This document shows, piece after piece, positions 2,941 to 19,655 of a DNA stretch of 64,000 nucleotides; the first letter of the stretch is position 1, and each line of letters opens with the position of its first letter. The notes below the pieces were generated by a model. It ran no database searches. It saw only the letters and a list, made by a program, of their open reading frames with translations, and was not told the DNA's origin. This DNA comes from Escherichia coli. Its GTDB lineage: Bacteria > Pseudomonadota > Gammaproteobacteria > Enterobacterales > Enterobacteriaceae. The translations under genes were made by a program, and so were the position numbers. Location: the NCBI RefSeq assembly GCF_002854065.1, contig NZ_CP024147.1. One strand, given 5' to 3'.

Positions 2941-2995
2941 GGTGATGCTGCCAACTTACTGATTTAGTGTATGATGGTGTTTTTGAGGTGCTCCA

Positions 2996-3271
2996 GTGGC
3001 TTCTGTTTCTATCAGCTGTCCCTCCTGTTCAGCTACTGACGGGGTGGTGCGTAACGGCAAAAGCACTGCCGGACATCAGCGCTATCTCTGCTCTCACTGC
3101 CGTAAAACATGGCAACTGCAGTTCACTTACACCGCTTCTCAACCCGGTACGCACCAGAAAATCATTGATATGGCCATGAATGGCGTTGGATGCCGGGCAA
3201 CCGCCCGCATTATGGGCGTTGGCCTCAACACGATTTTCCGCCATTTAAAAAACTCAGGCCGCAGTCGGTAA
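2996..3271 (+). CDS. insA: IS1 InsA (transposition inhibitor / N-terminal part of transposase), 91 aa
   Basis: [39 protein letters not shown]... with zinc-finger-like CxxC...CxxC and HTH. Confidence 0.92.
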
Positions 3272-3693
3272 CCTCGCGCATACAGCCGGGCAGTGACGTC
3301 ATCGTCTGCGCGGAAATGGACGAACAGTGGGGATACGTCGGGGCTAAATCGCGCCAGCGCTGGCTGTTTTACGCGTATGACAGGCTCCGGAAGACGGTTG
3401 TTGCGCACGTATTCGGTGAACGCACTATGGCGACGCTGGGGCGTCTTATGAGCCTGCTGTCACCCTTTGACGTGGTGATATGGATGACGGATGGCTGGCC
3501 GCTGTATGAATCCCGCCTGAAGGGAAAGCTGCACGTAATCAGCAAGCGATATACGCAGCGAATTGAGCGGCATAACCTGAATCTGAGGCAGCACCTGGCA
3601 CGGCTGGGACGGAAGTCGCTGTCGTTCTCAAAATCGGTGGAGCTGCATGACAAAGTCATCGGGCATTATCTGAACATAAAACACTATCAATAA
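3190..3693 (+). CDS. insB: IS1 InsB frame (expressed as InsAB' transposase by -1 frameshift from insA)
   Basis: 167-aa frame overlapping the insA 3' end in the -1 frame; catalytic domain of IS1 transposase. Coordinates are those of the ORF track; true expression is via a fusion. Confidence 0.85.
3245..3253 (+). other. IS1 programmed -1 ribosomal frameshift motif TTAAAAAAC
   Basis: A6C slippery run in the insA/insB overlap. Confidence 0.7.
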
Positions 3694-3708
3694 GTTGGAG
3701 TCATTACC

Positions 3709-3717
3709 CGTCCAGAG
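3709..3717. repeat. Target-site duplication (right) of IS1 copy 1: CGTCCAGAG
   Basis: Identical 9-mer directly abuts both IS1 ends. Confidence 0.92.
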
Positions 3718-3853
3718 AACGTTGAATATTATGTAATTTTCCTGTAATTGCCAGCGATTGTTTAAGGTGCTGCAAGAGAGCTGTCGCCTGCAAAGAAGGT
3801 TTAGTGATCAACAATAATGTATGACCATGAATACTATGGACTTCATTAAACAT

Positions 3854-4605
3854 GATGAAACCCCGCTTTTTTATTGATCGCACACCTGACAGCTGCCTCT
3901 AAAATAGAAGCACCAGAAGTACTGACAGATGTTGGACTGCTGTGTGTAGTAATAAATCAGCCCTAAATGGGTAAAATATAAAACTAATGGATTACATCTG
4001 ATTTCAATCTAGCCATTACAAATCTTAAATCAAGTGTTAAACATGTAACTAAATGTAACTCGTTATATTAAAATGTTAACTTTAAGGTTTTATTAAGTTT
4101 AGGAATGATAGAAAAGTTGTACATTTTGTTTTTATTGCACAATTTTAAAAAATCATACAAATGGTGCTAACTTACTAATAATGCATATAAAAAATATTTC
4201 GGTGTAGTCCTTTCGTCATGTAAAACGTTCTTGTTTTTTCTCCACACCACCGTGGACAATTTTTTACTGCAAAAAGACGAGGTTTGTCACGGCTTGTGCG
4301 CAAGACATATCGCAGCAATCAGCGACGGGCAAGAAGAATGACTGTCTGGTGTTTTTTGCTAGCGGAAAACGGAGATTTAAAAGAAAACAAAATATTTTTT
4401 GCGTAGATAACAGCGTATTTACGTGGGTTTTAATACTTTGGTATGAACAAAAAAAGAAAAATACAACGCGCGGGTGAGTTATTAAAAATATTTCCGCAGA
4501 CATACTTTCCATCGTAACGCAGCGTTAACAAAATACAGGTTGCGTTAACAACCAAGTTGAAATGATTTAATTTCTTAAAAGTACGACCAGGTCCAGGGTG
4601 ACAAC
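3854..4605. promoter_or_regulatory. csgD–csgB divergent intergenic regulatory region (csgDEFG and csgBAC promoters, csgD 5' leader)
   Basis: About 750 bp AT-rich non-coding region between divergent csgD (start 3853, -) and csgB (start 4606, +). Known hub for OmpR/CpxR/IHF/MlrA/RpoS and sRNA control (established knowledge). Individual sites not mapped here. Confidence 0.7.
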
Positions 4606-5061
4606 ATGAAAAACAAATTGTTATTTATGATGTTAACAATACTGGGTGCGTCTGGGATTGCAGCCGCAGCAGGTTATGATTTAGCTAATTCAGAATATAA
4701 CTTCGCGGTAAATGAATTGAGTAAGTCTTCATTTAATCAGGCAGCCATAATTGGTCAAGCTGGGACTAATAATAGTGCTCAGTTACGGCAGGGAGGCTCA
4801 AAACTTTTGGCGGTTGTTGCGCAAGAAGGTAGTAGCAACCGGGCAAAGATTGACCAGACAGGAGATTATAACCTTGCATATATTGATCAGGCGGGCAGTG
4901 CCAACGATGCCAGTATTTCGCAAGGTGCTTATGGTAATACTGCGATGATTATCCAGAAAGGTTCTGGTAATAAAGCAAATATTACACAGTATGGTACTCA
5001 AAAAACGGCAATTGTAGTGCAGAGACAGTCGCAAATGGCTATTCGCGTGACACAACGTTAA
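4606..5061 (+). CDS. csgB: Minor curlin / nucleator CsgB, 151 aa
   Basis: Full-length ORF with signal peptide and imperfect Q/N-rich repeats (AIIGQAG.NNSAQ.RQ...). Confidence 0.95.
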   Translation: MKNKLLFMMLTILGASGIAAAAGYDLANSEYNFAVNELSKSSFNQAAIIGQAGTNNSAQLRQGGSKLLAVVAQEGSSNRAKIDQTGDYNLAYIDQAGSANDASISQGAYGNTAMIIQKGSGNKANITQYGTQKTAIVVQRQSQMAIRVTQR

Positions 5062-5101
5062 TTTCCATTCGACTTTTAAATCAATCCGATGGGGGTTTTA
5101 C

Positions 5102-17464: not shown

Positions 17465-18517
17465 ATGCCAGTGTTACACAACCGCATTTCCAACGACGCG
17501 TTAAAAGCCAAAATGTTGGCTGAGAGCGAACCGCGAACCACCATTTCGTTTTATAAGTATTTCCACATCGCCGATCCTAAGGTGACCCGTGACGCTTTAT
17601 ATCAGCTGTTTACCGCGCTGAATGTTTTTGGGCGAGTGTATCTGGCGCATGAGGGCATTAACGCGCAAATCAGCGTACCAGCGAGCAATGTTGAAACATT
17701 TCGCGCGCAGCTCTATGCCTTCGACCCGGCTTTAGAGGGTTTACGCCTGAATATCGCGTTGGATGATGATGGGAAATCTTTCTGGGTACTGCGCATGAAG
17801 GTCCGCGATCGTATCGTTGCCGACGGTATTGACGATCCTCACTTTGATGCCAGCAATGTTGGTGAGTATCTGCAAGCGGCGGAAGTGAACGCCATGCTTG
17901 ACGATCCCGATGCACTGTTTATCGACATGCGTAACCACTATGAGTATGAAGTGGGGCACTTTGAAAACGCGCTGGAAATTCCGGCAGATACTTTCCGTGA
18001 GCAGCTGCCAAAAGCAGTCGAGATGATGCAGGCACATAAAGATAAAAAAATCGTTATGTACTGCACCGGCGGCATTCGTTGTGAAAAGGCCAGTGCCTGG
18101 ATGAAACATAACGGATTCAACAAAGTCTGGCATATCGAGGGCGGAATTATTGAATACGCCCGTAAGGCGCGCGAGCAGGGCTTGCCGGTGCGTTTTATTG
18201 GCAAAAATTTTGTTTTTGACGAGCGGATGGGCGAACGTATATCTGATGAGATTATCGCGCATTGCCACCAGTGCGGTGCGCCGTGCGACAGCCATACCAA
18301 CTGTAAAAATGATGGCTGCCACCTGCTGTTTATTCAGTGTCCAGTATGCGCGGAAAAATACAAAGGTTGTTGTAGTGAAATTTGCTGCGAAGAAAGCGCG
18401 TTACCGCCAGAAGAACAGAGACGCCGTCGGGCAGGACGTGAAAATGGCAATAAGATCTTTAATAAGTCTCGTGGACGTCTGAATACAACACTGGGCATTC
18501 CTGATCCAACAGAATAA
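17465..18517 (+). CDS. trhO: Rhodanese-domain tRNA U34 hydroxylase YceA/TrhO, 350 aa
   Basis: [16 protein letters not shown]...; rhodanese active-site region [10 protein letters not shown]; Cys-rich C-terminus. Confidence 0.9.
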
Positions 18518-18524
18518 ATATCAT

Positions 18525-18555
18525 TGCCGGATGCGTGCCATCCGGCAACATTTCA
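18525..18555. terminator. Hairpin between convergent yceA and yceI, putative bidirectional terminator
   Basis: Perfect stem TGCCGGATG/CATCCGGCA; weak U-tracts. Confidence 0.4.
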
Positions 18556-18878
18556 CTCTTACTTCTGCTGTACGCCTTCCACTGAAATAATCAGATCCAC
18601 TTCCTGAGAAGCTGGACCTAAATCTGTCTTGATATTGAAGTCCTTGAGCTTAATTTTGCCTTCGGCCTCGAAGCCTGCACGTTTACCACCCCACGGGTCG
18701 TCGCCCTGACCAATTAATTTCGCTTCCAGCGTGACGGGTTTGGTTACACCATTCAGCGTCAGATCGCCGGTAATATCCAGTTCGTCACCGTCTTTCTTCA
18801 CGCTGGTGGAGGTGAATGTTGCCTGTGGATATTTTGCGGTATTGAGGAAATCCGCACTGCGAAGATGTTTATCGCGTT

Positions 18879-18887
18879 CGGCGTGGT
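18879..18887. repeat. Target-site duplication (left) of IS1 copy 2: CGGCGTGGT
   Basis: Identical 9-mer abuts both ends (18879..18887 and 19656..19664). Confidence 0.92.
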
Positions 18888-18942
18888 GGTGATGCTGCCA
18901 ACTTACTGATTTAGTGTATGATGGTGTTTTTGAGGTGCTCCA

Positions 18943-19218
18943 GTGGCTTCTGTTTCTATCAGCTGTCCCTCCTGTTCAGCTACTGACGGGGTGGTGCGTA
19001 ACGGCAAAAGCACTGCCGGACATCAGCGCTATCTCTGCTCTCACTGCCGTAAAACATGGCAACTGCAGTTCACTTACACCGCTTCTCAACCCGGTACGCA
19101 CCAGAAAATCATTGATATGGCCATGAATGGCGTTGGATGCCGGGCAACCGCCCGCATTATGGGCGTTGGCCTCAACACGATTTTCCGCCATTTAAAAAAC
19201 TCAGGCCGCAGTCGGTAA
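18943..19218 (+). CDS. insA: IS1 InsA, 91 aa (copy 2)
   Basis: Identical translation to copy 1. Confidence 0.92.
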
Positions 19219-19640
19219 CCTCGCGCATACAGCCGGGCAGTGACGTCATCGTCTGCGCGGAAATGGACGAACAGTGGGGATACGTCGGGGCTAAATCGCG
19301 CCAGCGCTGGCTGTTTTACGCGTATGACAGTCTCCGGAAGACGGTTGTTGCGCACGTATTCGGTGAACGCACTATGGCGACGCTGGGGCGTCTTATGAGC
19401 CTGCTGTCACCCTTTGACGTGGTGATATGGATGACGGATGGCTGGCCGCTGTATGAATCCCGCCTGAAGGGAAAGCTGCACGTAATCAGCAAGCGATATA
19501 CGCAGCGAATTGAGCGGCATAACCTGAATCTGAGGCAGCACCTGGCACGGCTGGGACGGAAGTCGCTGTCGTTCTCAAAATCGGTGGAGCTGCATGACAA
19601 AGTCATCGGGCATTATCTGAACATAAAACACTATCAATAA
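19137..19640 (+). CDS. insB: IS1 InsB frame (copy 2; InsAB' by -1 frameshift)
   Basis: Identical to copy 1 except Ser instead of Arg at one position (...AYDSLRK... vs ...AYDRLRK...). Confidence 0.85.
19192..19200 (+). other. IS1 programmed -1 frameshift motif TTAAAAAAC (copy 2)
   Basis: A6C slippery run in the insA/insB overlap. Confidence 0.7.
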
Positions 19641-19655
19641 GTTGGAGTCATTACC

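Follow-up and report, generated by a model that had tools for sequence, protein, structure and literature searches.

Do two copies of the insertion sequence IS1 that enclose a block of envelope genes in the same orientation form a transposon, a cassette kept ready for deletion or amplification, or simply two insertions that happen to lie near each other? The question is raised by positions 2941-19655 of a 64,000-nucleotide stretch of Escherichia coli DNA (contig NZ_CP024147.1; the whole stretch is called the window below), where one IS1 splits csgD and the other splits yceI. Judged from the sequence, the bracket very probably arose by two separate and sequential simple IS1 transpositions into the native chromosome, the shared orientation being due to chance. 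The comparison set consisted of 5,426 complete E. coli genomes, and the nearest relatives of the window were CUWW06 (NZ_CP182139.1, a complete E. coli genome from wastewater in Thailand) and the draft assembly GCA_035821435.1. Plasmids were searched in 72,556 records (PLSDB). Gene coordinates in the window are those of the RefSeq annotation of CUWW06 moved by an offset, and were checked against the open reading frames of the window.

A repeat search over the 64 kb found one long direct-repeat family, with starts at 2941 and 18888 (spacing 15,947 bp), and no inverted partner of the IS1 repeat. A 54-nt probe for the left end of IS1 matched the window twice, both times on the + strand, with 0 matches expected by chance. 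When the two copies were aligned with 20-bp flanks, the similarity was limited exactly to 2941-3708 (copy A, IS1B-type, in csgD, + strand) and 18888-19655 (copy B, in yceI, + strand). The preliminary description of two 768-bp IS1 copies in the same orientation, 15,947 bp apart from start to start, was therefore right to the base. The copies are identical at 767 of 768 positions (99.87%). Their sole difference is at IS position 444, which is G in copy A and T in copy B, and which changes InsB from DRLRKT to DSLRKT (R to S). They are separated by 15,179 bp of unique DNA (3709-18887), for a total structure of 16,715 bp and a period of 15,947 bp.

Both copies appear to be whole. Their ends are the imperfect terminal inverted repeats GGTGATGCTGCCAACTTACTGAT and GGTAATGACTCCAACTTATTGAT, and the comparison of the left inverted repeat (GGTGATGCTGCCAACTTACTGATTTAGTGT) with the reverse complement of the right one (GGTAATGACTCCAACTTATTGATAGTGTTT) gave, in both copies, the repeat of about 23-30 bp that is expected of IS1. 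Each copy encodes an InsA of 91 residues, contains the A6C motif TTAAAAAAC in frame at IS position 305 and has an insB' (in copy A, insA at 2996-3271, A6C at 3245 and insB' to 3693; in copy B, an intact insA, A6C at 19192 and insB'). A -1 frameshift at the A6C motif fuses insA and insB' to give the IS1 transposase InsAB' of 232 residues, which scored 243.8 bits against the NCBIfam equivalog for IS1 family transposases (NF033558; cut-off 100). Both copies look transposition-competent by these features. They are the same in kind as IS1 (the IS1B-type isoform of E. coli and Shigella), copy B having one substitution only.

The target duplication made by IS1 is occasionally 8 bp. A duplication of 9 bp is the hallmark of the element (Grindley 1978, as cited in PMC12428005), and both copies have a perfect one. 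Copy A is flanked by CGTCCAGAG at 2932-2940 and 3709-3717, and copy B by CGGCGTGGT at 18879-18887 and 19656-19664, each exact over its 9 bp. Since both pairs are intact in the window, the sequenced molecule is unrecombined.

At the level of their reading frames, csgD and yceI are each split and insertionally inactivated. The 3' part of csgD (2426-2940, - strand, coordinates by offset from CUWW06; about codons 46-216 and the stop) lies outside the bracket, followed by csgE, csgF and csgG (2032-2421, 1591-2007 and 731-1564, likewise by offset), while the 5' stub (3709-3853, - strand) lies inside and encodes 48 native residues, an IS1-derived Gly and a stop. Intact CsgD reads ...QRSLDD where the stub ends ...QRSLDG. 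The lengths agree with a full csgD once the duplication is counted once (515 + 145 - 9 = 651 nt). Likewise, the 3' part of yceI (18559-18887, - strand, by the same offset; about codons 83-191 and the stop) is inside the bracket and the 5' part (19656-19911, - strand; 85 native residues, an IS1-derived Gly and a stop) outside, and together they make up a full yceI (329 + 256 - 9 = 576 nt). Upstream of the 5' part, in the same operon, is yceJ (19915-20481). As CsgD is cut to a 48-residue stub, expression of curli and of the CsgD-dependent matrix should be lost, and established knowledge of CsgD predicts a clone that is curli- and CsgD-negative and poor in biofilm.

The order of the two insertions could be read from CUWW06. 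This genome aligns to positions 1-18887 and 19656-64000 of the window with 12 substitutions and no gap (99.98% identical). It has IS1 at the same csgD site, annotated in RefSeq as an IS1-like element IS1B family transposase with programmed frameshift; this copy is 100% identical to copy A, as are other IS1 copies of CUWW06. In the intact yceI of CUWW06, CGGCGTGGT occurs a single time, and it is over just these 9 bp that the two BLAST segments overlap, as expected of an empty site. Over the 64 kb, the window and CUWW06 differ in structure only by the 777-bp yceI::IS1 insertion. Because CUWW06 carries csgD::IS1 and an empty yceI site, the yceI insertion is recent, simple and later than the csgD one. 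This relative and the two distinct, perfect target duplications bear out the earlier proposal of two independent simple insertions. In the proposed course of events, IS1 would first have entered csgD after codon 48, an older event common to CUWW06, and then yceI after codon 85, a recent event private to a sub-lineage. Each step would have made its own 9-bp duplication, and 15.2 kb of core envelope genes would have ended up between direct repeats of 768 bp.

Few assemblies are known to have the second IS1. The two insertions are not paired in any of the complete genomes, 10 of which have IS1 in or near yceI and 50 in or near csgD. A Logan contig (SRR20408471) is 100% identical to window positions 3681-6042 and ends within copy A.

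Insertion of IS1 into these genes was found to be recurrent. In the 50 complete genomes with IS1 at most 300 bp from the csgD position the sites are various; among the cases inspected, the Swiss strain '042' has it in another csgD codon, whereas in E3 it lies between csgD and csgB. The exact csgD site, with the same orientation and the same 49-residue stub, was also found in CP019689.1, which is Shigella sonnei 75/02 (PMC5447701), and in four other NCBI assemblies. One Logan contig with the exact csgD::IS1 site also lacks csgBA. The flanks of these recurrent loci reach no more than about 98-99% identity with the window (about 98% for S. sonnei), and the recurrence of the site could reflect shared descent, transfer of the allele or a true hot spot. 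The S. sonnei curli locus resembles the window in having IS1 at the exact csgD site in the same orientation, and differs from it by additional insertions of IS1 and IS21; S. sonnei yielded no yceI::IS1 stub. Loss of csgD in S. sonnei has been reported, with the insertion called IS600 at about 0.18 kb (PMC12511311). Contrary to this, the S. sonnei-type loci that we examined show IS1 (InsA/PF03400) at 0.144 kb.

The exact yceI position was also hit elsewhere. Logan assembly SRR10499913 has IS1 there in the same orientation; the 9-mer differs by one nucleotide (ATCACGCCG versus ACCACGCCG). The flanking sequence matches the window at 97.75% identity, but complete E. coli genomes with an empty site (EC28, ECO20 and others) at 100%. 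By this comparison, it is an independent insertion at the same site in a different lineage. In the 10 complete genomes noted above, IS1 is elsewhere in or near yceI; in one of them, CUVET19-1426, it lies near the start codon and csgD is intact. These repeated hits fit a target preference of IS1 together with recurrent loss of curli, and leave the verdict on the bracket unchanged.

What could the pair do now? Near-identical long repeats (767/768) in direct orientation, both on the + strand, are a substrate for recombination, and RecA/RecBC-dependent unequal crossing-over at direct repeats such as IS elements leads to tandem duplication and amplification (PMC12892994). We infer that RecA-dependent recombination could delete or duplicate the bracketed DNA or release it as a circle. 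Exchange within one molecule would delete 15,947 bp and release a non-replicating circle, and the deletion product would keep one IS1, with CGTCCAGAG on its left and CGGCGTGGT on its right. Unequal exchange between sister chromatids would create a new yceI'-IS1-csgD' junction, first in a tandem duplication and later in an amplified array. In principle, InsAB' could use the outer ends as well. This potential is generic to any pair of IS copies in the same orientation, and the bracket is not special in this respect.

We looked for the products of such events with two synthetic queries, the deletion junction (flank of the csgD 3' part, IS1, flank of the yceI 5' part) and the amplification or circle junction (flank of the yceI 3' part, IS1, flank of the csgD stub). 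At a threshold of at least 80% query coverage, the deletion junction was found in 0 of 5,426 complete E. coli genomes and the amplification or circle junction in 0 of 5,426. The best matches were the parental csgD::IS1 junction, at 78% coverage. Thus no single-IS1 deletion, tandem array or circle junction was present in the complete genomes, and this result, together with the intact target duplications, is consistent with the earlier view that the two copies have not yet recombined.

This bears on the possibility that selection keeps the bracket as an amplifiable or deletable cassette, through the copy number of mdtG, lpxL and opgGH or through programmed loss of curli. There is precedent, as IS-flanked units amplify under selection (PMC12892994) and IS1-associated deletions lead to heteroresistance in clinical E. 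coli (PMC10569738). Moreover, mdtG is a fosfomycin efflux determinant according to RGI, and the lineage has lost pga genes beside IS1 too. However, neither an amplified nor a deleted derivative was found in the 5,426 genomes, the second IS1 arose very recently and is known only from those few assemblies, the same orientation is expected half the time by chance, and inactivation of csgD alone silences curli. We consider such selection very unlikely. We likewise see little chance that the 15.9-kb envelope cassette (mdtG, lpxL, opgGH, clsC) is unstable in copy number, with RecA-dependent subpopulations in cultures. If it were, tandem amplification might give heteroresistance to fosfomycin or bile salts through mdtG, and cells with the deletion would be envelope-defective and temperature-sensitive, a variation on which selection could act. 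Null mutants of lpxL (htrB) are unable to grow above about 33 °C on rich medium, and in opgGH mutants the envelope is defective. Because lpxL and opgGH would be lost with the deletion, and the block is kept nearly universally, the deletion is expected to be counter-selected.

The nitrofurantoin heteroresistance just referred to involves IS1-associated deletions of 11-66 kb in the nfsB region of clinical E. coli (PMC10569738). A single IS1 copy is where they begin, in keeping with abortive or intramolecular transposition and not with recombination between two copies (PMC10569738). Since a single IS1 already yields adjacent deletions, a bracket is no prerequisite for instability. In contrast to the nfsB region, no deletion was seen at the csgD-yceI bracket. 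IS1-adjacent deletions similar to those of the nfsB region were observed in pga, amounting to 5.1 kb in CUWW06 (pgaC'-pgaB-'pgaA) and 10.4 kb in E3 (pgaC' to ycdU). Both CUWW06 (positions 6325-7741 of the extracted locus) and E3 (11401-12642) retain a 213-bp pgaC remnant with one common breakpoint abutting IS1, which is of different isoforms in the two genomes (IS1B in CUWW06, IS1A in E3). From their breakpoints, the two losses look like nested IS1-adjacent deletions. Besides CsgD, CUWW06 has thus lost PGA; in the strain of the window, pga falls beyond the 64 kb covered here.

A still weaker alternative is that the second IS1, or its orientation, is an artefact of assembly, a multi-copy repeat having been collapsed or misplaced. 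IS1 is a repeat of the type that confuses assemblers, with at least 40 places in the related genome, and the exact yceI::IS1 insertion is absent from all complete genomes in the collection. Against this, copy B has precise IS ends and a perfect 9-bp target duplication, and its substitution at position 444 is private, being missing from the three IS1 copies of the CUWW06 locus that was examined. Furthermore, the draft GCA_035821435.1 is an independent assembly, and one of its contigs carries a gene call for exactly the 86-residue YceI-IS1 fusion stub. This contig matches the window at 99.99% identity over 10.3 kb and stops 77 bp into the right end of IS1. This repeats one junction of copy B, the right one. 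The presence of the yceI-IS1 junction in this draft indicates that assembly error does not account for the second insertion. An artefact is hardly credible in view of these data.

Weakest of all is the idea that the 16.7-kb structure is a functional composite transposon of the Tn9 type, which arrived or moves as a unit: although it has, as Tn9 has, two intact IS1 copies in direct orientation around a segment, with the outer left and right inverted repeats and both transposase genes intact, the outer 9-mers differ (CGTCCAGAG on the left, CGGCGTGGT on the right) and each pairs with the inner flank of its own IS1, so that there is no shared outer target duplication, the passenger is neither foreign nor found at several locations, CUWW06 carries the block with just one of the two IS1 copies, and none of the PLSDB matches looks like a genuine plasmid. 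With at least 80% coverage as the threshold, the block was found at one place in 5,418 of the 5,426 complete E. coli genomes, always in the chromosome and in its native synteny. PLSDB gave 12 full-length matches to the block, all in non-mobilizable "plasmid" records of 0.16-4.9 Mb. In the one record inspected, CP061255.1 (pSTEC310_2, 160 kb), the block has its chromosomal neighbours, ghrA-ycdXYZ-csgGFED to one side and yceJ-solA-bssS-dinI-pyrC to the other, so that the record is a piece of chromosome under a wrong label, and mobilisation of the block to plasmids was rejected. To judge by this case, the 12 records look like chromosome fragments or mislabelled chromosomes. On this sequence evidence a composite-transposon origin is effectively refuted. 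The resemblance to Tn9 had been discounted from the outset, and the pattern of target duplications, the native synteny and the relative with one IS1 all agree with that judgement.

Amplifiable or excisable units flanked by direct IS1 copies are well known. They include Tn9 (cat), the r-determinant of R100/NR1 and the IS1-flanked argF segment of E. coli K-12 (Tn2901), and Tn9 and the r-determinant have been found at different locations and observed to amplify. The bracket shares with all three a direct-orientation IS1 pair around about 1 to 20 kb, and the behaviours expected of them, namely RecA-dependent loop-out of a circle, a deletion that leaves one IS1, and tandem amplification, would apply to it. 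Unlike them, it holds native core DNA at its native site, and each IS1 has its own target duplication. Unlike Tn9 and the r-determinant, it gives no sign of ever having transposed, amplified or excised.

No observation contradicts the reading of two sequential insertions, but three points limit it. First, IS1 occupies the same csgD site in S. sonnei and other lineages, and the csgD insertion could be much older than supposed or could have been acquired by recombination. Second, rare subpopulations with the deletion or the amplification may exist in the source culture, the survey of junctions covering assembled genomes only. Third, the loss of curli and the temperature sensitivity of a deletion are phenotypes deduced from established knowledge of CsgD and LpxL.

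The enclosed core chromosome block (3709-18887, 15,179 bp) includes the csgD promoter and 5' untranslated region. Between the csgD stub and the 3' part of yceI it contains, on the + strand, csgB (4606-5061), csgA (5102-5560), csgC (5619-5951), ymdA (6072-6383), ymdB (6478-7011) and clsC (6953-8434), then opgC/mdoC (8442-9599) on the - strand, opgG (9993-11528), opgH (11521-14064) and yceK (14237-14464) on the + strand, msyB (14465-14839), mdtG (14922-16148) and lpxL (16320-17240) on the - strand, and trhO (17465-18517) on the + strand. The gene list given previously, from the csgD stub to the yceI 3' part, agrees with both the RefSeq annotation of CUWW06 and the open reading frames of the window. 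In the RGI classification, mdtG belongs to the efflux determinants for phosphonic acids (fosfomycin).

Some other observations were made in the window. Short direct-repeat families of 45 nt and 32 nt (64-84% identity) occur in csgA at 5228-5555; to judge by their position, they are probably the known imperfect curlin repeat units, unrelated to the IS1 pair. An Rfam scan of the window gave known E. coli elements in their expected places only, none of them tied to the IS1 pair. Gathering-level matches within the block were the small RNA ES056 (3908-3999, - strand) in the csgD 5' leader region and ES036/CssrF (14096-14138, - strand) downstream of opgH; the others were the PyrC leader (24046-24095, - strand), the RNase E 5' untranslated region element (45828-46164, - strand) and SraB (48025-48193, + strand). 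Within the block, CUWW06 has OpgC G122R (window position 9236) relative to the window and the outgroup, and the only other difference from CUWW06 there is an intergenic one at 9635. Six of the 12 substitutions between the window and CUWW06 fall in flgM-flgJ, at 31295 and 31460 (flgM), 31743 and 32244 (flgA), 34504 (flgE) and 39197 (flgJ). The window and CUWW06 each have one private non-synonymous substitution in the anti-sigma factor FlgM, Q91K and S36T respectively, and FlgE has P165L in CUWW06. This cluster may be due to selection on motility, to a small tract of recombination or to errors of sequencing.

The bracket is made of two ordinary IS1 insertions in a native core neighbourhood, and represents no new element, transposon or mechanism; as an arrangement it is routine. 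Its significance beyond strain-level annotation is slight. Short-read contigs break at both IS1 copies, which is of relevance to assembly, and the pair is worth knowing when any copy-number change over positions 2941-19655 is read. The yceI insertion provides a clean, recent clonal marker that divides the sub-lineage from CUWW06. The recurrence of both exact sites is of modest interest for the target-site preference of IS1 and for the convergent loss of curli.

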